DNA of 64,000 nt from Oscillospiraceae bacterium (GTDB taxonomy: Bacteria > Bacillota > Clostridia > Oscillospirales > CAG-272): positions 34,680 to 98,679 of the forward strand of contig SVTW01000001.1 in NCBI GenBank assembly GCA_015063585.1, written 5' to 3'. Positions 3,792 to 22,997 of this stretch are shown one piece after another. The translations under genes were made by a program, and so were the position numbers. The notes below the pieces were generated by a model that saw only the letters and a program-made list of their open reading frames with translations, was not told where the DNA came from and did not search any database. Every line of letters begins with the position of its first letter. Position 1 is the stretch's first letter.

Positions 3792-4727
3792 ATGCAAGCT
3801 GTAAGTTGTATTTCTTTATCCGATGGACAAGAAACAGCGTTCCCTTCCCAAAGCGTGCTTTGCCTTGGGAACTTTGACGGCGTTCACGCGGCACACCGTG
3901 AATTAATGAAAAAAACGCTGTCGCTTCGGAATGAAAAGTTCCCCTCTGCCGCTTGTGCCGTATTCTGCTTTCGAGTTCCTTCCTCGGATTTCCTTTCGGG
4001 AGCGGCAGTGCCAAGATTGTGCACCTTGGAGGAAAAACTGCAATATTTTCGTCAAATGGGCATGGAATATGCTTTTCTTGCCGATTTCCCGTCAATTCGT
4101 GCGCTCACCCCCACTTTATTTGTGGAAGAAATCCTCAAAAATACCTGCCATTGTGTCGGTGCTGTTTGCGGATTTAATTTTGCATTCGGTCAAAATGCCG
4201 ATGGGAAAGCCGACATGCTTGCCGACATGCTCCAAGCGCCTGTCATCATTCAATCGGAGGTGTGTATCGACGGTGCGCGCGTTTCTTCCACGCGTATTCG
4301 AGAGTATCTTCTCATGGGTGCTCCCGAAAAAGCTACGCAAATGCTTCTCCGCCCCTATTCCTTCTGCGCGGAGGTCGTGCACGGAAAAGCACTCGGACAT
4401 AAGCTGGGGACCCCAACGATCAATCAATTTTTCCCGTCTGCGCTTCTGATCCCCCGTCACGGAGTTTACGTGACCGACTGTGAGACGGATGGAAGAATCT
4501 ATCGGGGGGTTTCCAACGTTGGTCTGCGCCCTACTGTGGACAATAGCTCAAGCGCCAATTGCGAAACCTATTTGCTTGATTTTTCAGGCGATCTTTATGG
4601 AAAACTTGTCCGCGTATCCTTTTTAAAATTCCTTCGCCCCGAACAAGCCTTTGATTCGATCGACACGCTCCGCGCGCAAATTCAATGCGACGTAAAGGCG
4701 GCAAGAGATTACCAAACCACACTTTAA
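3792..4727 (+). CDS. ribF: bifunctional riboflavin kinase / FMN adenylyltransferase
   Basis: 311 aa; N-terminal LGNFDGVHAAH nucleotidyltransferase motif and C-terminal riboflavin kinase region (GTPTINQ, RPE). Confidence 0.9.
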   Translation: MQAVSCISLSDGQETAFPSQSVLCLGNFDGVHAAHRELMKKTLSLRNEKFPSAACAVFCFRVPSSDFLSGAAVPRLCTLEEKLQYFRQMGMEYAFLADFPSIRALTPTLFVEEILKNTCHCVGAVCGFNFAFGQNADGKADMLADMLQAPVIIQSEVCIDGARVSSTRIREYLLMGAPEKATQMLLRPYSFCAEVVHGKALGHKLGTPTINQFFPSALLIPRHGVYVTDCETDGRIYRGVSNVGLRPTVDNSSSANCETYLLDFSGDLYGKLVRVSFLKFLRPEQAFDSIDTLRAQIQCDVKAARDYQTTL

Positions 4728-4745: not shown

Positions 4746-6125
4746 ATGCGTCGCAAATTCGTTTTTTTGCTCGTTGTTTTTTGTTTGACACTGATCTGCT
4801 CGGCGCATATAATCCCCTCCTTTGCCGCCGATGATACAGCACTTCCCCCATCAGCCGACGAGGCGGAGGCGGTTTATCTTGTTCACGTGGAAAGCGGAAC
4901 CCCTGTTTTTGAAAAAAATGCAACCGAAACGGTCAGCGCAGGCTCCACCGTTAAGGTAATGGCGGGTCTTTTGGCTTGTGAAACGCTTGCCGACAGACTG
5001 TATGAGGAGGTTGCGATAACCGCCGAAATGGTAAATAGCTCGGCGGGATACCGACTTTACATCAAGGTTGGAGATATCCTCACGGTGGAACAGCTTCTCT
5101 ATGCGGCGATCTGTGCCAGCTACAACGACGCATTCGATGCGCTCGCAGTCTACATAGCAGGCTCAAAAGATGCTTTTGTGGAGCGCATGAACACGCGTGC
5201 CGTCGAAATGGGATGCGACCATACCTTTTTCAGCGACCCCAGCGGTGTTGACGACGCCTCCCGTACCGATGCCGATGATCTCTACCGTATCGCAAAACAG
5301 GCCTATGAAAACACACTCTACATGCAGATCTGTTCAACTGTACGCTATTCCTTTACGGGATCCGATAAATTAGATGCCCGCACCTTTTACAATCGGAACG
5401 CCTTGGTTTCCAAAACAATGACCGACAAATATTTCAACGCAAAATGCAAAGGAATGAGTGCGGGATATACAGAACGTGGCGGTAGCTGTGTGGTTACAGC
5501 CGCAAACAAAGGGGAGGACACGTATATTTGTATTGTAATGGGTGCTCCCGAAACCGAGGAGACAACCTATGGATATCTTGTTGTAAACCGTTTTCTGGCT
5601 TGGTGCTTTGACGCGTTTGGCTATCAAACGCTGCTCTCGCCCGATCAAGCGGTCTGTACGGTTCCCGTAACAGTTTCGGATACGGTACATGAAATGGAAC
5701 TTCGCGTGGCGGAACCCTTCTCCTGCTTTTTGCCGCTGACGGCAGAAATCGGAACGGACGTTACCTTCAGCATCCGCTTAAATACCCCTTCGCTTGAAGC
5801 CCCTGTTTCGGAAGGCATGCCGGTAGGCTACGTTGCGATCCTTTACCGCGGGCAACAGATTGAGATCCTCCCGCTTTATACAGCCGGAGCTGCGGAACGA
5901 AGCGCTTTTGTCGGCGCATTGAAAGGCATTCAGGCACTCACGCAAAACCGCGCATTTATGGCGGGCTTGATCTTCTTTACAGTTGGAATTTGCGTTTGGG
6001 CAGTTACCGAAGCACTGCTAAAACGGCAACGAAGACTCAAATGGGACAAATATTTCAGCATGAAGATGACACCGTCCCCCACCGCGCTTCAAACGAAACC
6101 CGATAAAAACAAAACACCAAAATAA
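4746..6125 (+). CDS. D-alanyl-D-alanine carboxypeptidase (serine peptidase S11) with C-terminal membrane anchor
   Basis: Signal peptide, S-x-x-K (STVK) active-site motif, PBP5-like layout, C-terminal TM helix; AAGGAG RBS. Confidence 0.85.
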   Translation: MRRKFVFLLVVFCLTLICSAHIIPSFAADDTALPPSADEAEAVYLVHVESGTPVFEKNATETVSAGSTVKVMAGLLACETLADRLYEEVAITAEMVNSSAGYRLYIKVGDILTVEQLLYAAICASYNDAFDALAVYIAGSKDAFVERMNTRAVEMGCDHTFFSDPSGVDDASRTDADDLYRIAKQAYENTLYMQICSTVRYSFTGSDKLDARTFYNRNALVSKTMTDKYFNAKCKGMSAGYTERGGSCVVTAANKGEDTYICIVMGAPETEETTYGYLVVNRFLAWCFDAFGYQTLLSPDQAVCTVPVTVSDTVHEMELRVAEPFSCFLPLTAEIGTDVTFSIRLNTPSLEAPVSEGMPVGYVAILYRGQQIEILPLYTAGAAERSAFVGALKGIQALTQNRAFMAGLIFFTVGICVWAVTEALLKRQRRLKWDKYFSMKMTPSPTALQTKPDKNKTPK

Positions 6126-16875: not shown

Positions 16876-17982
16876 ATGAAAAAAATCAGAGTTTTTTGTC
16901 TTTTATTGACGCTATGCATGTTCCTGTCGTTGGCGGTAGGATGTGATTTTATCAATCTTCTCGGTAACGATTCTACCGACACAGGCACCGATGATACAAC
17001 CGAATCGGAAAGCGAATCGGATAGCGAATCGGTCGGCGATTCCGAATCGAGCTCAACAACGGAAAGCAACACGGAGGAAACAACGACCGAAAAAGATACC
17101 GAAACCGAAACCGATCCGCCGGCGGATGATGAATACCGCGTTCTCCTTACCTCTGATATGCATTACACTTCCCTCTCCTCCTATTATGGCATGGACAGAG
17201 ACGTTCGCCTGCAATATTGGGTGAACGGAATTTTGGACGAACATAAGAGAGATCCCTTTGATCTGATCATCATTCTTGGCGACATGTCGCTTGACTATTG
17301 GGGCTGGAACGGTGGTGGAAGCTATCAGCGCAACCCCTCGGTAAGTGATACACAAAAATTCATGGAAAAATATGTTTCGCAGCTTCCCCAAGATGTACCG
17401 ACGATCGTACTCCCCGGCAACCATGAGCTTTATACCAATGAAAAATGGAAGCAAATTACCGGCAACAACCGCAATGAATCCTTTGTTTTAGGTGAAAACC
17501 TCTTTGTTATGCCCGACTCGTTTAGCGGCGCAATTGATCCGGCTTACGTTGGTGGCGGAAAAAATGACAGCCCCTACAAGGCGGTGGATATGACCTTTGT
17601 TCAAGCTGAAATTGATAAGCACCCCGAATGCAAAAATATTTTCTTGATTTCTCACCATTTTGATCTTTCTAAGGAAAGCAACGAATTTAAGAATCTACTG
17701 AAAACCGAAACAAGAATCGTTGGTCTTTTCTCCGGTCATACACACAGCAATAAAGCGAAAGACCTGGGCGCGGAATATAACGGACTCCGCATTGCGCAAA
17801 CCGGTAACTTTGCCTCCTACAGTGACGAAACAGTAGCGAATTTCTCTTGGGGATACCGCGATCTACAAATCAGCGATCAGCTTATCAAATCCACCTATAT
17901 TGTTCCCGGTGATTGCTTCTATATCGTAGGCAGCAAAACCTATAAATCCACCCGCACATTCTCAAACATTGTTTTCTATTGA
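16876..17982 (+). CDS. secreted lipoprotein metallophosphoesterase
   Basis: Lipobox LAVGC, acidic S/T/D/E-rich linker, calcineurin-like motifs (DMHY, GDMS, GNHE, SHH, GHTH); an alternative start exists at 16858. Confidence 0.8.
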   Translation: MKKIRVFCLLLTLCMFLSLAVGCDFINLLGNDSTDTGTDDTTESESESDSESVGDSESSSTTESNTEETTTEKDTETETDPPADDEYRVLLTSDMHYTSLSSYYGMDRDVRLQYWVNGILDEHKRDPFDLIIILGDMSLDYWGWNGGGSYQRNPSVSDTQKFMEKYVSQLPQDVPTIVLPGNHELYTNEKWKQITGNNRNESFVLGENLFVMPDSFSGAIDPAYVGGGKNDSPYKAVDMTFVQAEIDKHPECKNIFLISHHFDLSKESNEFKNLLKTETRIVGLFSGHTHSNKAKDLGAEYNGLRIAQTGNFASYSDETVANFSWGYRDLQISDQLIKSTYIVPGDCFYIVGSKTYKSTRTFSNIVFY

Positions 17983-18015
17983 TTTTTTCGCACACAATTG
18001 CAAATAAGTTCAACG

Positions 18016-18054
18016 AAAAAATGCACGTCTTTTTGGTAGGACGTGCATTTTTTT
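18016..18054 (+). terminator. rho-independent terminator
   Basis: ATGCACGTC/GACGTGCAT stem flanked by an A-run and a 6-T run. Confidence 0.8.
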
Positions 18055-18084
18055 GAATTTTTTTATTTTTTTCTGAAAAAGGTA

Positions 18085-18113
18085 TTGCAATTTTAAAAGT
18101 TATGTGTTATAAT
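18085..18113 (+). promoter_or_regulatory. sigma-A promoter with extended -10 (TTGCAA-17-TGT-TATAAT)
   Basis: -35 at 18085-18090, TGn plus TATAAT at 18105-18113. This is the only strong promoter upstream of the repeat units and tRNA-Ser. Confidence 0.6.
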
Positions 18114-18186
18114 ATCATACGTTGCGGTGAACAGCCGCAATACAAGAAAGTTAAAAATTAGACCCTTTCAGGGTTTAATTATATAT

Positions 18187-18329
18187 GGAGAGATATCGAA
18201 GTGGGGACGTTGCCGAGCGCTGCCGGGGGCAGGTAAAGCGAGGCATAAGGAGTGGCAGCGGTCGAAATTTTGCAAGCAAGGCGAGCTAAAATTTCGGGTA
18301 CCGCAACAGGGTCATAACGGGGCGCCCCG
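18187..18329 (+). ncRNA. tRNA-Ser-derived chimeric structured RNA unit 1 (unclassified)
   Basis: tRNA nt 1-18, then a 107-nt insert (18205-18311), then tRNA nt 19-30, then the CGGGGCGCCCCG hairpin. It lacks the anticodon loop, T arm and 3' acceptor strand. Confidence 0.4.
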
Positions 18330-18375
18330 CAAGATAAATTAAAAAATTAGACTCTTTTAGAGTTTAATTATATAT

Positions 18376-18518
18376 GGAGAGATGTCGAAGTGGGGACGTT
18401 GCCGAGCGCTGCCGGGGGCAGGTAAAGCGAGGCATAAGGAGTGGCAGCGGTCGAAATTTTGCAAGCAAGGCGAGCTAAAATTTCGGGTACCGCAACAGGG
18501 TCATAACGGGGTGCCCCG
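18376..18518 (+). ncRNA. tRNA-Ser-derived chimeric structured RNA unit 2 (unclassified)
   Basis: Same architecture as unit 1; insert 18394-18500 is identical to the unit 1 insert. Confidence 0.4.
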
Positions 18519-18565
18519 CAAGATAAATTAAAAAAATTAGACTCTTTTAGAGTTTAATTATATAT

Positions 18566-18654
18566 GGAGAGATATCGAAGTGGTCATAACGGGGCTGACT
18601 CGAAATCAGTTTGTGCGCAAGCACACGAGGGTTCGAATCCCTCTCTCTCCGCCA
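18566..18654 (+). tRNA. tRNA-Ser (anticodon CGA)
   Basis: Manual cloverleaf. Acceptor GGAGAGA/TCTCTCC; anticodon stem GCTGA/TCAGT with loop CTCGAAA. Long variable arm GTGC-GCAA-GCAC; T arm GAGGG-TTCGAAT-CCCTC; encoded CCA. Confidence 0.9.
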
Positions 18655-18656
18655 AC

Positions 18657-18696
18657 AAAAAACGCACTTTTGTCTACCGACAAAGGTGCGTTTTTT
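18657..18696 (+). terminator. rho-independent terminator of the tRNA-Ser transcription unit
   Basis: 13-bp stem ACGCACTTTTGTC/GACAAAGGTGCGT followed by TTTTTT. Confidence 0.85.
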
Positions 18697-18698
18697 GA

Positions 18699-18862
18699 AT
18701 GATGTTTGCCTTCGGCAAATGATGTTGGCTCCGCCAATGATGACGGCTTCGCCTAATGATGCGTGGTTTTGCCACGTTTTGGGGCAAACATCGCATCATT
18801 GCGGAACGCAGTGGAGCAACATCATATTTGCGAAGCAAATGCATCATATCGCCGCAGGCGAT
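18699..18862. repeat. array of 7-8 mini-hairpins separated by ATGATG (first half) and CATCAT (second half) spacers
   Basis: Hairpins TTTGCC-TTCG-GCAAA, TTGGC-TCC-GCCAA, CGTGG-TTTT-CCACG, TGCG-GAA-CGCA, ATTTGC-GAA-GCAAAT and ATCGCC-GCA-GGCGAT, each flanked by the hexamer. Confidence 0.65.
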
Positions 18863-18885
18863 GCTTCATTTGACAAACACATGTT

Positions 18886-19644
18886 TTAAGGTTCATCCGA
18901 AAATAAAAAATTCAACATTCTTTCGGGAGAGTCAAAAAAATCCTTGGTTAAGAGATAGTGCTCGGTCTCGCGATAGGATACCGATTCTATGGAATGTTGA
19001 GAAATCTGATAGATCTCGGCATTCGGCATTGTCATCAGAATGGGAGAATGCGTGGAAATAATAAACTGTGAATTCTTTTCTACAAGTCGATGAATTAAAA
19101 TCATCAGTTTCATCAAACGCGCCGGCGAAAGTGCCGCCTCAGGCTCGTCGAGAATGTAAAGACCGTTTTCTCCAAAGCGGTTTTCTACAAGGGAGAGAAA
19201 GCTTTCACCGTGAGATTGCCTGTGAAGCGATACGCCACCGTAGGAATGGATGATGGGCGGTGCCGACGCGGGTATACGGTCAAGCTGATCAATATAACTT
19301 GCAACGTTATAAAAGCTCTCGGCACGCAAAAAGAAGCCGTCTCGGCTTGGTGTGATCGATCTTGCAACGGTCAGATAACGGTAAAGCTCGGAGTGGCTGC
19401 TTTCGGTTGAAAAACGGAAGTTTCGTGTTCCGCCCTCTGGATTAAAGCCCATCGCAACCGCGATCGCCTCGATCAGCGTTGATTTGCCAACTCCGTTCTC
19501 CCCCACAAAAAAGGTGATGGGAGCGTGAAAGGAGAGCTTCTCCATGCGCTCCAGATGCTTTACCACCGAAAGTGCTGAGAAATACGCGTTGGCGGGAAGC
19601 GTGCCCGACAGCGCGATATGCTTGAGATAAGGTTCTTGAAGCAT
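18886..19644 (-). CDS. AAA/ABC-like ATPase, stand-alone (COG3910-like predicted ATPase)
   Basis: Walker A GENGVGKST, Walker B YILDEPEAALS. ORF trimmed to MLQEPYLKH (ATG at 19644, GGAGG RBS). Confidence 0.8.
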   Translation of the reverse strand: MLQEPYLKHIALSGTLPANAYFSALSVVKHLERMEKLSFHAPITFFVGENGVGKSTLIEAIAVAMGFNPEGGTRNFRFSTESSHSELYRYLTVARSITPSRDGFFLRAESFYNVASYIDQLDRIPASAPPIIHSYGGVSLHRQSHGESFLSLVENRFGENGLYILDEPEAALSPARLMKLMILIHRLVEKNSQFIISTHSPILMTMPNAEIYQISQHSIESVSYRETEHYLLTKDFFDSPERMLNFLFSDEP

Positions 19645-19704
19645 GCGAGGTCCTCCAATTCTCAAAAAGGGGAAAGACGCTTGGCTCTCTCCCCTTCTCA
19701 TTTT

Positions 19705-21612
19705 TTATTCTGTCAAAGCCAAAATCAACGCGTCGCAGTCCAGCGCAAACGAATGATGGATCGGTTCCGTTCGCTCTTGAATTCCAAAGCTGTCGCGCAA
19801 TGCCATTACGCGAACGGTCTTGTTTTGCATAATGGATGCGGTTGCCATTACGTCCGACAGCAACATGCCCATTCCGCCCGAATAGATCTCCTCTTCCAAG
19901 AAGATGACGCGGCATGTCTTTTTCGGAAGGAAAGGCTCAACCTTTTTGGCAATTTCATCATATGGCTTGATTTGCTCCAACAACAAAATGCCAACCTGCA
20001 TCTGCCCTTTCAATTGCTCTGCCGCCGCCATGGCTTCCTTCACAATTCTTCCATGCGTGATGATCACAGCGTCCAATTCCTCCGGAGAATCATGGACGGC
20101 TTGGCGATAGTTGTTGCGCACACCGATCTGTGTGATCGACGCGTCTTTATAAAAGGTCTCCAAAACAGCCGGATCCTCATAACCGCTCGGGTATCGAATT
20201 GCGGTTGGAAGCTCATTTTTGAGCGCGGTTTCAAGTGAAAGACGCAATCCCGCTCGCGTAATAGGCGTATAGATGGTCAAATTGGGAATTTGCGACAAAA
20301 ATGCTACGTCAAAAATACCGTGATGCGTTGCGCCGTCCGACGCGTTGAGTCCCGCGCGGTCAATACAAAAAACAACGGGAAGCTTTTGCAACGCAACGTC
20401 GTGAATTATATTGTCATAGGCACGCTGCAAAAACGTGGAATAGATAGCTACAACAGGACGAAAACCGTTTGCCGCGAGTCCTGCCGCAAAGGTAACCGCA
20501 TGCTCCTCGGCAATTCCCACGTCAAAGAAACGGGAAGGATATGCGGCTTGGAACTTGGTCAAGCCCGTTCCGCCCGCCATCGCAGCCGTTATGGCGCAGA
20601 TCTTCTCGTTTTTAGCGGCAAGCGCGGTTAAATGCGCGCCCATTTCTGCTGAAAAAGACGGCGTGTCGGGAACGACGGTTCCCGCGGGGGCGACCCCATG
20701 GAAACGGTCGGGCGTTGCTTCCGCCGGTGCATAGCCTTTTCCCTTTTGTGTTTTCAAATGAATCACACAGCTCTGTCGGCTTGCCTTTGCCTCACGCAAC
20801 AGCAGCTCCACTGCCGCCTCGTCGTTTCCGTTTACGGGTCCGAGATAGTAAAGCCCGAGATCCTCAAAATAGTTACTTCCGTACAGCGAGGATTTGAGCG
20901 ACATCTTCAAGCGGCGCAAGCCTGACACGATCGGCTTACCGATAAGCGGAATGCGACTCAAAAAAGAATTGGTTGCGTTTTTGGTTTTAAAGTAGCCTTT
21001 TGAAGAACGCAGACGCGAAAGCGTTCTCGCAAATCTTCCGATATTTTTGGAGATCGACATTTCGTTTTCGTTCAGTATGATGATCAAACGGAGCTTTTTA
21101 CGGCAGTTGTTGATTGCCTCATGGATCATACCGCCGGTGTAGGCTCCGTCGCCCAAAACGCAGATCGTATAAGCATCTGAACCGCTGATGCGGTCTGCCT
21201 CGGCAAAGCCAAGTGCCGCGGAAAGCGACGTGGAGCTATGCCCTGTGCCAAAGCAATCGTGCTCGCTTTCGCTCCGCTTTGGAAAGCCGCTGATTCCGCC
21301 GCCTTGGCGCAACGTATCAAACGAATCGCGCCGCCCCGTGATCAATTTGTGAATATATGCTTGATGTCCCACATCAAAAATAATATGATCGTGCGGAGAG
21401 GAAAAAACACGGTGAATTGCCAAAGACAGCTCTACCACACCAAGATTGGAAGCAAGATGACCGCCGTTTTCCAAAACACGCTCGACCAAAAAAGCGCGAA
21501 TCTCCTCCGCAAGAGCCGGAAGCTCGGATGCGGGAATTGCTTTCAGATCATCCGGACTGTTCACACGAAACAGATGCGGATATTTTTCGTTTTGAAATGC
21601 TTGAGCATCCAT
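19705..21612 (-). CDS. dxs: 1-deoxy-D-xylulose-5-phosphate synthase
   Basis: 635 aa; TPP-binding GDGAYTGGM motif and GHSSTSLSAALG; full-length DXS layout. Confidence 0.92.
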   Translation of the reverse strand: MDAQAFQNEKYPHLFRVNSPDDLKAIPASELPALAEEIRAFLVERVLENGGHLASNLGVVELSLAIHRVFSSPHDHIIFDVGHQAYIHKLITGRRDSFDTLRQGGGISGFPKRSESEHDCFGTGHSSTSLSAALGFAEADRISGSDAYTICVLGDGAYTGGMIHEAINNCRKKLRLIIILNENEMSISKNIGRFARTLSRLRSSKGYFKTKNATNSFLSRIPLIGKPIVSGLRRLKMSLKSSLYGSNYFEDLGLYYLGPVNGNDEAAVELLLREAKASRQSCVIHLKTQKGKGYAPAEATPDRFHGVAPAGTVVPDTPSFSAEMGAHLTALAAKNEKICAITAAMAGGTGLTKFQAAYPSRFFDVGIAEEHAVTFAAGLAANGFRPVVAIYSTFLQRAYDNIIHDVALQKLPVVFCIDRAGLNASDGATHHGIFDVAFLSQIPNLTIYTPITRAGLRLSLETALKNELPTAIRYPSGYEDPAVLETFYKDASITQIGVRNNYRQAVHDSPEELDAVIITHGRIVKEAMAAAEQLKGQMQVGILLLEQIKPYDEIAKKVEPFLPKKTCRVIFLEEEIYSGGMGMLLSDVMATASIMQNKTVRVMALRDSFGIQERTEPIHHSFALDCDALILALTE

Positions 21613-21647
21613 TCGATGTCAGCCCCCTTCTTTTTTTCTTATCTATT

Positions 21648-21676
21648 AGTATACCACAAAAAACCGCACTTGTCAA
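21648..21676 (-). promoter_or_regulatory. sigma-A promoter for dxs (TTGACA-17-TGG-TATACT)
   Basis: The reverse complement shows TTGACA, a 17-nt spacer and an extended -10. Confidence 0.55.
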
Positions 21677-21789
21677 GGCAGGGGCGATTTTTTAAGCTTT
21701 TATTCGTTTTTTGTAAAAAAATGCGAAATCATTCGAAAAAAGGTAGGTAAATTAAAATAATTAACCGCTATTGTCTTTTAAAGTCCGCT

Positions 21790-21822
21790 TTTGACTTTCT
21801 TTGACTTTGACTTTCTTTGACT
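21790..21822. promoter_or_regulatory. two tandem CtsR operators (inverted orientation) overlapping the -35
   Basis: TTTGACT-TTC-TTTGACT occurs twice (21790-21806, 21806-21822). This is the reverse complement of the CtsR box consensus RGTCAAANANRGTCAAA. Confidence 0.75.
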
Positions 21823-21835
21823 ATCAGAGTATAAT
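21807..21835 (+). promoter_or_regulatory. sigma-A promoter of the ctsR operon (TTGACT-17-TATAAT)
   Basis: -35 at 21807-21812, -10 at 21830-21835. Confidence 0.65.
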
Positions 21836-21846
21836 GATGCCAGAAA

Positions 21847-21863
21847 GGTCAAAGAAGGTCAAA
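21847..21863 (+). promoter_or_regulatory. CtsR operator (direct orientation) downstream of the -10
   Basis: GGTCAAAGAAGGTCAAA is an exact match to the heptad direct-repeat consensus. Confidence 0.8.
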
Positions 21864-21881
21864 AAAGAAAGGAGCCCACCT

Positions 21882-22337
21882 ATGCTAGCGGATTATATTG
21901 CGAAAATAATTGAAGAAATGCTCAATGAGGGGAACGGAATTTTAGAGCTTCAACGAAATGAGATGGCAAATCGGATCGGATGTGTTCCAAGTCAGATCAG
22001 CTACGTAATCGCCTCCCGTTTCACACCCGAGCGCGGATATATGATCGAATCAAGGCGCGGCGGCGGCGGTTGTATCCGCATTGTACGCAAGCAAATGAGT
22101 CAGAATGAATACTTGATGCATTTCTTTTGCGCAATCGGCGAGAGCATTGAAGAAGGTGAGGCGATTGCGTATCTGAAAAATCTGGTCGGAAGCGGCTGCA
22201 TTGACACCACTGCCCTCCGCATGGCGCAAGCGGCACTTTCCACCTCTGCCCTCTCGGCAATTGCCCCCGAGCACCGCAGCAGAATTCGCGCTGATATTTT
22301 CAAGCAAATGATCCTTGCCCTGATGCAAAGCAAGTAA
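21882..22337 (+). CDS. ctsR: class III stress-gene transcriptional repressor CtsR
   Basis: N-terminus MLADYIAKIIEEML..., glycine-rich loop ESRRGGGGCIRI; AAAGGAG RBS; operon context with mcsA, mcsB and clpC. Confidence 0.9.
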   Translation: MLADYIAKIIEEMLNEGNGILELQRNEMANRIGCVPSQISYVIASRFTPERGYMIESRRGGGGCIRIVRKQMSQNEYLMHFFCAIGESIEEGEAIAYLKNLVGSGCIDTTALRMAQAALSTSALSAIAPEHRSRIRADIFKQMILALMQSK

Positions 22338-22454
22338 AATTTTCCACTTTTTCGTTTTTTACAGAGATTGCGACAAGTTTCGTAACCAAAAAGCGATATA
22401 ATAGAACAAAACAACGGTCGTTTCAAAAAACGGTCAAAGAAAGGATTGATTGAT

Positions 22455-22997
22455 ATGTTATGTGAAAGCTGCAAAAAAAGAACCGCAACGGTTTTTTATA
22501 ATGAAAACATCAACGGTCGCGCACGTTCCTTCTCGCTCTGCGGTGAATGTGCCGCAAAGCTTCGCGAAAAGGGTGACTTGCAGGACGTAACCTCAATGCT
22601 GGGGAGTTTTGCCGATCCCTTCAGCAACCTGCACGACAATCTGTTCGGCGGATTTTTCGGGATTCCTTCGGCAAAAATTAACTCGGTTGAGAAAAAATGC
22701 CCCGAATGCGGAGCGGGATACTCTGAGATCGCAAAAAGCGGAAAGGTAGGCTGTCCCACCTGCTACACGATCTTTCGGGACGAGCTTGCGCGTACACTCC
22801 AATCCATTCACGGAACAACACAGCACACGGGGCACGTCCCTGCCCGTCACCGCGCTAAGCAGGCGCGCGAGGAACAACTGCAAACACTTCGCGAATCCTT
22901 GCGGAATGCGATTGAAAAGGAAGACTATGAAAGTGCGGCAAAGCTTCGCGATGAAATTCGCGCTTTGAATGAAAAGAATGAAAAGGAGGGAGACTAA
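22455..22997 (+). CDS. mcsA: McsA (zinc-finger / UvrB-C motif activator of McsB)
   Basis: CxxC zinc-finger pairs and a C-terminal UVR motif (EDYESAAKLRDEIRAL); gene order. Confidence 0.85.
   Translation: MLCESCKKRTATVFYNENINGRARSFSLCGECAAKLREKGDLQDVTSMLGSFADPFSNLHDNLFGGFFGIPSAKINSVEKKCPECGAGYSEIAKSGKVGCPTCYTIFRDELARTLQSIHGTTQHTGHVPARHRAKQAREEQLQTLRESLRNAIEKEDYESAAKLRDEIRALNEKNEKEGD

Follow-up and report, generated by a model that had tools for sequence, protein, structure and literature searches.

Two units precede an intact tRNA-Ser(CGA) gene

We analysed a stretch of 64,000 nucleotides (nt) from an Oscillospiraceae bacterium (contig SVTW01000001.1, positions 34,680 to 98,679 of the forward strand; hereafter the window), in which two nearly identical units stand in tandem upstream of a serine tRNA gene. 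Each unit contains a GC-rich element, the core, 107 nt of which an original prediction, made from the letters of this DNA, had described as an insert in the D-loop of a tRNA. Comparison with other genomes indicates that the core is one member of a large family, absent from catalogues, of non-coding elements with a conserved fold that occur in Clostridia of the gut and rumen and in their phages.

The locus is built on a 189-bp tandem repeat of 2.3 copies at 18153-18583 (TRF score 820, 97% matches), which runs into a genuine tRNA-Ser(CGA) at 18566-18654. Read 5' to 3', each unit consists of a leader hairpin and AATTATATAT; GGAGAGATATCGAAGTGG, the same as nt 1-18 of the tRNA; the 107-nt insert; TCATAACGGGG, which corresponds approximately to tRNA nt 20-30; and CGCCCCGCAAGATAAATTA. 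The promoter at 18085-18113 is the sole promoter-like site upstream of the units and the tRNA, and a second intrinsic terminator (18014-18055) closes the gene upstream of the locus. Units and tRNA-Ser(CGA) probably form a single transcription unit, from the predicted promoter to the terminator past the tRNA. The features are as follows.

18085-18113, + strand: sigma-70-like promoter, TTGCAA, 17-nt spacer, TG-TATAAT (consensus scan, 10/12 matches, extended -10)
18121-18141, + strand: hairpin close to the predicted transcript start, GTTGCGG-TGAACA-GCCGCAA (read from the sequence)
18153-18583, + strand: tandem repeat, 189 bp x 2.3 (TRF; alignment)
18160-18177, also 18349-18366 and 18539-18556, + strand: leader hairpin then AATTATATAT, immediately 5' of each GGAGAGA (pattern positions)
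18187-18204, + strand: pseudo-tRNA 5' fragment, copy 1, same as tRNA-Ser nt 1-18 (0/16 mismatches to the cognate tRNA; alignment)
18203-18311, + strand: core, copy 1, GGGG...AACAGGG, containing the 107 nt described earlier (covariance model R1, 106.4 bits, E = 3e-28, 18191-18321)
18312-18322, + strand: pseudo-tRNA fragment, copy 1, D-loop plus 3' strand of the D-stem (TCATAACGGGG, ~tRNA nt 20-30; identical string in the tRNA at 18584, 12-nt contiguous match)
18318-18329, copy 2 at 18507-18518, + strand: small GC hairpin CGGGG(C/T)GCCCCG, re-using the 3' strand of the D-stem (read from the sequence)
18376-18393, + strand: pseudo-tRNA 5' fragment of copy 2, with a single A-to-G substitution at 18384 (alignment)
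18392-18500, + strand: core, copy 2, identical to copy 1 (R1, 106.2 bits, E = 3.7e-28, 18380-18510)
18501-18511, + strand: pseudo-tRNA D-arm 3' fragment, copy 2 (pattern positions)
18566-18654, + strand: intact tRNA-Ser(CGA), CCA encoded, cognate of the pseudo-fragments (ARAGORN; Rfam RF00005, 54.3 bits)
18656-18697, + strand: intrinsic terminator just past the tRNA (19-pair stem, then a T run)

The first GG of core copy 1 doubles as G18G19 of the tRNA. A hairpin and AT-rich tract comparable to the leader precede both unit and tRNA in several homologous loci (e.g. L033, L087, and L118), and a hairpin of other sequence but equivalent form to the small GC hairpin follows the core in most loci of the tRNA-Ser type.

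The repeat units are truncated pseudo-tRNA pieces, not tRNAs carrying an insert. ARAGORN, Rfam, and reading of the sequence found no anticodon arm, T arm, or 3' acceptor strand in them, and after the D-arm 3' piece the unit continues with CGCCCCGCAAGATAAATT. When the core was deleted computationally from each of 110 copies, and 20 variants of each junction were tried, no tRNA spanned a junction (this and the other family-wide counts, of 113 and 114 copies or loci, are drawn from the at least 120 loci of the pattern scan described below, among the matches listed). We therefore rejected the unit as a complete tRNA with an insert, since the only tRNA that ARAGORN and Rfam find is the one at 18566-18654 and core removal restores none. 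A tRNA intron (group I or II, or of the archaeal bulge-helix-bulge type) was rejected because the tRNA copy that harbours the core is incomplete, Rfam shows no group I or II match at E<=10, and an intron-less intact tRNA stands alongside. The original prediction was right about the position of the insert, after G18G19 of a tRNA-like sequence, but the unit around it is not a retained tRNA. Nor can its helix P1 stack on the D-stem of a functional tRNA: the 3' two-thirds of the molecule are missing from the units, and deletion of the core yields no tRNA in the 110 copies.

The core belongs to a family found in Clostridia and phages

A blastn search with the unit against plasmid records returned replicon pMM35_01 of Vescimonas fastidiosa (74% identity, E = 4e-9), an 861-kb replicon in which the core occurs at 24-25 places. 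Four full copies in a 50-kb stretch of it are 90-95% identical to the reference copy. From the window and Vescimonas sequences we derived the search pattern GAGTGGCNGCGG-N(25-55)-CCGCAACAGG, which matches at least 120 loci in species-representative genomes. Of these, 114/120 were confirmed by nhmmer among the matches listed; the 6 unconfirmed loci come from unrelated phyla, in line with the approximately 8 chance matches expected from an estimate based on pattern length and database size. The carriers are nearly all Faecousia, Oscillospiraceae, Vescimonas, Acutalibacteraceae, Ruminococcus, and "Clostridia" or "Eubacteriales", with genomes from human, ruminant, and other gut samples. The same pattern is found in 22 stretches of viral contigs. 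An exact 22-mer had no match in the viral contigs, and blastn against the phage database gave nothing meaningful with either the window unit or the Vescimonas copy. Homologues outside this locus, which the original prediction had named as its check, thus exist at more than 110 loci in Clostridia genomes and in the 22 phage-contig stretches.

We built a covariance model, R1, from 113 distinct copies, the window sequence included. On the 64-kb window it gives exactly two matches, at 106.4 and 106.2 bits, scores that are partly circular because the window is in the training alignment; the independent support for the window thus comes from the blastn hit (E = 4e-9) and from nhmmer. The other copies score 93-132 bits. 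Both window copies combine a significant R1 score with helices kept by compensatory change, which places them in the family.

Rfam 15 has no family for the core, whether searched with the window at 17500-19300 (E<=10), with the Vescimonas copy (E<=1), or with 126 kb of phage loci (gathering score), so the earlier statement that it matches no known riboswitch or ribozyme stands. We rejected a riboswitch because no aptamer family matches and orientation is not biased towards neighbouring protein genes. Searches of literature full text, by topic and by sequence string, found no description of the motif. The family is apparently real and undescribed.

The core folds into two hairpin domains

We compared pair counts on the 113-sequence alignment under the three-helix model of the original prediction and under a model for the whole family. 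The first of the three helices, P1 (GTTGC/GCAAC), is paired in 29% of cells across the 113 homologues. The second, P2 (CGCTGCC/GGCAGCG), is complementary, with 88.7% of cells paired, yet it shows zero double changes and its central pair is broken in 82/113. The third, P3, is in the minimum-free-energy fold and holds as drawn, since 89% of its cells are paired and 8/9 of its pairs change on both sides. The family model pairs 96.7% of cells, and 15/22 of its pairs change on both sides; its covariation score is 0.413, versus 0.135 for column shuffles and <=0.12 for slid-partner controls. Columns 18-61 are G-C in 82 copies, C-G in 28, and A-U in 2; columns 28-51 are G-C in 83 and C-G in 27. In columns 32-42, a pair of the local hairpin, C-G occurs 60 times, U-A 53 times, and an unpaired state 0 times. 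Columns 25-54 and all of columns 76-82 with 115-121 also covary. P3, as drawn in the family model, changes on both sides in 7/8 pairs, and in the GCGGT/ACCGC helix 99.6% of cells are paired and a double change occurs once. In rare variants, double changes preserve the local hairpin and the GCGGU/ACCGC helix and would break P2.

Covariation thus supports P3, the local hairpin, the GCGGT/ACCGC helix, and the 5' hairpin, and rejects P1 and P2: the core folds into two hairpin domains and forms no three-way junction. For the window copy, the structure of minimum free energy is the same as the family fold. In copy 1 its parts are the following.

18206-18251, + strand: 5' domain, a single irregular hairpin (covarying columns 18-61, 25-54, 28-51, 32-42)
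18208-18249; 18211..18214 with 18245..18242; 18217-18239; 18218-18238, + strand: Watson-Crick pairs of the 5' domain
18206.18251 with 18207.18250; 18215.18241 with 18216.18240, + strand: tandem G.A pairs of the 5' domain (near-invariant in 111 sequences)
18220..18224 with 18232..18228, + strand: apical hairpin, P2 of the family fold
18258-18304, + strand: 3' domain (GCGGT 18258-18262 with ACCGC 18300-18304; P3 18263..18270 with 18296..18289)
18297-18299 plus the adjoining base, + strand: conserved GGGT bulge of the 3' domain

In the 5' half, short Watson-Crick (G-C) segments alternate with near-invariant tandem G.A/A.G pairs of the sheared type, under a cap formed by a CYGCC/GGCRG hairpin. There are three tandem G.A modules in 83 "AGC-type" copies and two in 28 "ACG-type" copies, the type of the window. 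The 3' half consists of GCGGU/ACCGC with a conserved GGGYA bulge and then the variable P3 stem. Three segments that flank the domains, GGGG, GUGGC, and AACAGG, are 90-100% conserved and not accounted for by pairing. The original prediction had also proposed two exclusive folds: the alternative that it saw, a CTGCC-GGG-GGCAG hairpin, is real and includes a perfectly covarying pair, whereas the P2 with which it would compete is not supported.

The 107 nt alone fold no better than shuffles (z = -1.26). The 189-nt unit has z = -4.05, with GUGGGG 18200-18205 pairing with CCCCGC 18324-18329 and UAUC 18194-18197 with GAUA 18332-18335; these pairings close the core, and the first of them excludes the small CGGGG/CCCCG hairpin. 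In loci of the L087 type, a post-core segment, CCCCGUUCGA, is by eye complementary to UCGAAGUGGGG, a feature that is not conserved in L058 or L103. A phage contig (L131) carries a lone extra 5' domain (5712-5757) directly before a full core (5763-5895), which indicates that the two domains can duplicate separately.

The functional strand is probably the + strand, judging from the G.A modules (which would be C.U on the opposite strand), the co-orientation with tRNAs, and the co-orientation with phage genes.

These data bear directly on the model of a three-way-junction RNA in the D-loop of a retained tRNA, whose identity is kept by selection or targeted conversion. The insert does follow G18G19, the copies are identical, P3 is real, and P2 is complementary in most cells. 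However, P1 is mostly unpaired, P2 lacks covariation, the rare variants preserve the competing hairpin and GCGGU/ACCGC, anticodon arm, T arm, and 3' acceptor strand are all missing from the units, and a recent unequal crossover explains the identity of the copies. We regard this model as almost certainly wrong.

Unit number changes by recombination

The two inserts (18205-18311 and 18394-18500) are identical at 107/107 positions. The units differ by five substitutions (18164, 18169, 18172, 18195, 18323) and one indel (an extra A, 18342), all of them in the flanks, just as had been noted earlier. If the six differences were independent, the chance of all falling in the 82 flanking bases would be (82/189)^6 = 0.007. 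From this identity the original prediction had argued for selection or targeted gene conversion on the insert.

A metagenome contig of the same species as the window (L001) has a single unit, whose left side is the window's outer leader plus GATATCG and whose right side is GGGGTGCCCC plus a seven-A spacer; it is an exact unit1-left/unit2-right recombinant. Collapse in the short-read assembly is a possible cause of this single unit (2130-2450). Three of the six differences separate outer from inner leaders and are already present in this allele, and its composition implies that these leader-hairpin differences are older than the second unit. About three changes then remain after the duplication ((82/189)^3, p ~ 0.08), so the within-locus case for selection or targeted conversion is weak. 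What survives of that claim is purifying selection on the core, which the family-wide conservation supports.

The one-unit and two-unit alleles point to an unequal crossover in the identical core or close to it. Loci also differ in how many tandem units they have, with 1 in L001 (2130-2450), 2 in L095 (5332-5751), and 3 in L105 (546-1008). A contig from a sister strain (L147; JGI 3300032167) matches the window at 99.97% identity over the interval between the DXS gene and the T arm of tRNA-Ser(CGA) (window 18626-22468). Upstream of the T arm, the units and the metallophosphoesterase gene give way to another tRNA-Ser(CGA) body, of ordinary appearance, and a gene for a tadA-like deaminase. This is a strain-level replacement or rearrangement with its breakpoint in the T arm of the tRNA. 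We found no second copy of the tRNA 3' end in the window.

Cores interrupt tRNA sequence at a GGU motif

Among the 110 copies, 43 lie at <=600 nt from a tRNA gene, and 39 of these 43 are on the same strand as the tRNA (p = 3e-8). The layout of the window recurs in 20 loci, each with a promoter, tRNA-Ser nt 1-18, the core, the D-arm 3' piece, a small hairpin, and an intact tRNA-Ser, whose anticodon is CGA in most and UGA in L095 and L103. The window fits this layout and differs by its two units and its recently duplicated leader (27/30 identical). The same design of truncated tRNA, core, and intact tRNA is found with tRNA-Arg(CCG) in L021, tRNA-Pro(UGG) in L124, and tRNA-Leu(UAG) in L065 and L091.

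At the junctions, a GGU of the tRNA is replaced by GGGG...CAGG and then A, with small variations between loci. The exceptions are the window and L120, which read CAGGG-U and keep the U, and L021, which lacks tRNA sequence 3' of the core. The GGU corresponds to G18G19U20 of the D-loop in the Ser, Arg, and Pro genes and in one Leu gene, and to nt 9-11 in the other (L091). One locus (L082) is a mirror image, in which an intact tRNA-Ser and its terminator are followed by nt 8-18, the core, and nt 20-76. Copies downstream of tRNAs sit in partial 3' tRNA copies, which they enter after GG and before U in the T-stem; the core is then followed by the last 11-34 nt of the tRNA, a trailer, and a terminator.

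Direct repeats of 14-80 nt flank about 30 of 102 copies, essentially only those in a tRNA context. In L021, L036, and L007 these repeats include the locus-specific leader or trailer at 98-100% identity, so they are recent local duplications, neither imported attachment sites nor an intrinsic target-site duplication. For the same reason we rejected, at these three loci, an attP site imported by an integrative element. A long target duplication as the insertion mechanism was rejected because ~70% of copies have no flanking repeat.

Tyrosine-integrase genes lie downstream of tRNA-Ser(CGA) in L006, L056, and L121, and the three integrases found beside core loci adjoin tRNA-Ser, where integration is common. 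At ~640-690, L082 contains part of the 3' end of tRNA-Ser in inverted orientation. In L006 a coreless truncated tRNA-Ser-like piece (GGAGAGTTGTCCGAGTGGTCGAAGGTGCAGCACTCGAAA..., ~4540-4620) stands between the core-bearing pseudo-tRNA and the intact tRNA-Ser, which implies that partial copies of tRNA-Ser also arise without the element. The tRNA-Ser(CGA) locus is a general recombination hot spot, independent of the core.

Copies in Vescimonas, in phages, and their neighbourhoods

In Vescimonas the core takes the place of the loop in a GC-rich repeat hairpin, whose flanks, CGATGTGG...GTCATCG, resemble the D-arm context of tRNA-Ser. One intergenic region of pMM35_01 (L003, 2590-3140), upstream of a major capsid gene of the N4-gp56 type, is dense with other repeat modules, namely GGGCGGG-stem-loop-CCCCTACGG hairpins, one of which has a core in its loop, and a repeated TACGGATTGCCACAGCCGGTGTGCG...GCAATGACA unit.

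In phages the copies occupy gaps among the head and packaging genes: 5' of the large terminase gene, in the terminase-portal or portal-scaffold interval, or after the major head protein gene. All those whose flanking genes were examined are co-oriented with these genes. Some phage contigs have three copies, and no phage copy is near a tRNA. The Rfam motif DUF3800-VIII RNA is found ~220 nt upstream of core copies in two phage contigs (L131, 5427-5492; L129, 7078-7143).

All-against-all clustering of the 1520 open reading frames in 8-kb neighbourhoods revealed no enriched protein family; the largest cluster, an ABC transporter, is present at 8 of ~114 loci. Orientation relative to protein genes is unbiased, with the downstream neighbour on the same strand in 32 cases and on the opposite strand in 22, counts that depend on crude calling of the open reading frames.

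The habits of the core recall those of small ribozymes: many copies per genome, proximity to phage structural genes and tRNAs, co-orientation with the transcript, and near-invariant junction or bulge nucleotides next to freely covarying stems. The theta (hepatitis delta virus-like, HDV-like) ribozymes beside gut-phage tRNAs provide a precedent (PMC10879173). The core might thus be a new small self-cleaving ribozyme, or an RNA-processing signal that cuts tRNA precursors and the transcripts of phage late operons. However, no hammerhead, twister, twister-sister, pistol, hatchet, HDV-like, or other Rfam family matches even at E<=10, and we rejected these classes and the hairpin ribozyme on the window, the Vescimonas copy, and the 126 kb of phage loci. 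The placement also cannot make a tRNA end, since the core lies 62-71 nt before tRNA +1 or 60-140 nt past the tRNA with a terminator in between. We judge this reading quite unlikely.

In the window itself, the region between the tRNA terminator and the end of an AAA-ATPase gene (18696-18880) contains a series of short GC hairpins, spaced by AATGATG in the 5' half and by CATCAT in the 3' half, and folds as one long imperfect hairpin (minimum free energy -73.4 kcal/mol, z = -4.65). A sub-threshold match to the Rfam family 'Gut-1' covers 18660-18730 (25 bits versus a cut-off of 50). A look-up of the AAA-ATPase protein at this other side of the locus gave no record.

A mobile element or a host function?

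The homology, the fold, the association with tRNAs, the GGU motif, the multi-copy dispersal, and the change of copy number by recombination are directly supported; from the sequences we infer transcription, processing, mobility, and any cellular role. The explanation we favour, whose chance of being correct we put at about even, is that the core is a selfish, non-autonomous element, mobile or at least repeatedly copied, that rides on tRNAs and highly transcribed units. The promoter at 18085-18113 would transcribe both units and the intact tRNA up to the terminator at 18656-18697, and a cut by RNase P at tRNA +1 would free the upstream unit RNAs. The element would enter exposed GGU sites in hairpin loops, with tRNA genes as preferred targets. 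An insertion in an essential tRNA gene would persist only if a partial duplication at the locus had left an intact copy next to it, which would produce the recurring layout of truncated tRNA, core, and intact tRNA; such survivorship is the simplest reading of the flanking local duplications. The second unit of the window would have arisen by unequal crossover. Signs of mobility or recent spread are the 90-95% identity of Vescimonas copies, the lack of an enriched protein family, and the arrays of 1-3 units. A miniature inverted-repeat transposable element was rejected, because the ends of the core, GGGGAGCGA and CGCAACAGG, are not complementary, and flanking repeats are absent in ~70% of copies and vary from 14 to 80 nt where present.

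Several results weigh against this explanation. We found no pair of empty and filled sites, having sought empty sites in two recurrent phage contexts, so that mobility is deduced from distribution only. The copies have neither terminal inverted repeats nor a short target duplication that recurs consistently, and no transposase, reverse transcriptase, or recombinase partner was found in the 8-kb neighbourhoods. That unpaired bases keep 90-100% conservation from genus to genus suggests catalysis or a specific molecular partner. In 14 of the 20 tRNA-Ser loci the core ends at a constant 62-71 nt before tRNA +1. In 12-13 of the 20 loci the 16-nt 5' arm matches the cognate tRNA at every position, lineage-specific variants included (GGTGACG in L121, GGAGAAGTACTCAAGT in L058, L105, and L120, GGAGGGTTATCGAAGC in L103), and the 30-nt leaders are mostly dissimilar. 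The tRNA-Ser form is in synteny with hisH/hisF in 4 genomes. The apparently stable inheritance, constant spacing, and arm identity are less readily explained by a decaying relic than by a function for the host or by coupling to the tRNA.

The same spacing, arm identity, and synteny are what one would expect if the unit served the host as a cis-acting leader module for the biogenesis of tRNA-Ser(CGA). The pseudo-arm would then compete with, or mimic, the true 5' strand and D-arm, and the core would be a sensor or protein platform that sets the level of mature tRNA. In agreement with this, the post-core hairpin keeps its pairing while its sequence follows each tRNA, and the structure model suggests a possible two-state switch, in which CCCC 18324-18327 pairs with either 18318-18322 or 18202-18205. 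On the other hand, ~60% of copies are not near a tRNA, and those of phages are set among head and packaging genes. Some loci have a decayed arm (1 mismatch in L056, 5 in L095a and L075), and the same core accompanies four different tRNAs and also occurs downstream of tRNA terminators. Finally, the sister strain (L147) has an ordinary, unit-less tRNA-Ser(CGA) at the same site, so the unit is dispensable for the locus. We consider a role in tRNA biogenesis unlikely.

The excess of G.U over A.C mismatches expected of an RNA is not significant either (26 versus 16, p = 0.16), so the fold at the RNA level is not formally separated from a fold in single-stranded DNA; this too counts against the explanation we favour. 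If the fold acted in single-stranded DNA, the hairpins could be the ends of a minimal transposon-like element, comparable to the palindrome-associated elements derived from IS200/IS605, or sites for a recombinase acting in trans. Consistent with this, tandem G.A pairs are also stable in DNA, the two hairpin domains are separate and have sharp outer boundaries, insertion takes place at specific short motifs in hairpin loops, and integrase genes and tRNA fragments cluster at tRNA-Ser(CGA) loci. Yet no TnpA, TnpB, IscB-like, or other gene is enriched in the 8-kb neighbourhoods, the two hairpins are unlike each other whereas the ends of IS200/IS605 are alike, and a DNA element does not need strict co-orientation with transcription. 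We find this alternative very unlikely. An IS200/IS605 element proper, or an omega or guide RNA (IS605-orfB, HEARO), was rejected because Rfam gives no match and the neighbourhoods contain no transposase cluster. A guide role for the 16-nt arm, in the guide-then-scaffold order of IscB or Cas9, was set aside as well, because in dispersed copies the two flanks pair with each other and no effector gene is linked to them.

Taken further, the mobile-element explanation would make the core a member of a new class of bacterial non-autonomous mobile elements, with a body of RNA or single-stranded DNA that homes to GGU in tRNA loops as a counterpart of the short interspersed nuclear elements (SINEs) of eukaryotes, and with a fold that is catalytic, which would define a ribozyme class of its own, or that recruits a host or phage enzyme to propagate the element. 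We hold this extension to be doubtful. We likewise consider it possible but rather improbable that the core is a tRNA-targeting mobile RNA element of a wholly new kind, or represents a ribozyme class not described before.

Comparison with known systems

The short repeats ERIC/IRU, BOX, RUP, Correia/NEMIS, and REP/BIME are imperfect palindromes or have terminal inverted repeats, and make short target duplications of fixed length. The core resembles ERIC, BOX, RUP, Correia, and REP sequences in being short, non-coding, intergenic, multi-copy, geneless, and of conserved secondary structure, and probably, as they often are, co-transcribed with neighbouring genes. It differs in having no terminal inverted repeat, two unrelated hairpins, invariant unpaired bases, conservation across genera, and an oriented bias towards tRNAs.

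The attL/attR tRNA fragments of islands with tyrosine integrases also place a partial copy beside an intact tRNA and have breakpoints in tRNA loops. The likeness extends to the tRNA-Ser(CGA) locus, with its integrase genes and a strain-level replacement whose breakpoint is in the T arm. The units studied here, by contrast, are local duplications that include leaders and trailers, with an insert of ~110-250 bp and no integrase.

Eukaryotic tRNA-derived SINEs share with the core a non-autonomous, multi-copy nature and tRNA sequence at the 5' side, and the Vescimonas flanks are themselves D-arm-like. Unlike SINEs, the core has no evident reverse transcriptase partner, poly(A)-like tail, or internal promoter logic, and its retro-mobility would be pure speculation.

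Theta (minimal HDV-like) ribozymes are small RNAs of the gut virome that lie beside tRNA genes and are co-transcribed with them (PMC10879173). The core is similar as a small structured RNA of the gut virome placed by tRNAs. Theta ribozymes, however, have the HDV double pseudoknot and lie beside phage tRNAs, whereas the core lacks complementarity of the HDV-like P1/P1.1 type and, in phages, does not lie near tRNAs.

The nearest systems in terms of where the element lives are GOLLD and ROOL, large ornate orphan RNAs of Firmicutes and rumen bacteria, which are often beside tRNA genes and in prophages, and also occur elsewhere (PMC5737381), and which form RNA-only homo-oligomeric complexes (PMC12286853). 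The likeness covers genomic habits, occurrence in rumen and gut Clostridia, and the status of orphan structured RNAs with strong covariation and no known function. We rejected membership in either family because Rfam gives no match and only the genomic context is alike: GOLLD and ROOL are far larger and multi-domain, whereas the core has ~110 nt and two hairpins, reaches up to ~25 copies per replicon, and is embedded in tRNA fragments.

If the family is what it seems, it adds to the few structured RNAs tied to tRNAs and prophages (GOLLD, ROOL, and theta) a well-supported orphan motif with >100 representatives, strong covariation, and unusual stacked tandem G.A modules. In the annotation of many gut and rumen genomes, it would also account for the puzzling tandem repeats and "half tRNAs" that precede tRNA-Ser(CGA). 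The combination of truncated tRNA, element, and intact tRNA, with entry at GGU in four tRNAs, would be a testable signature of site-specific insertion rescued by local duplication. Among these RNAs the element would be a small and tractable member, with Vescimonas fastidiosa MM35 as a carrier of ~25 copies on one replicon.

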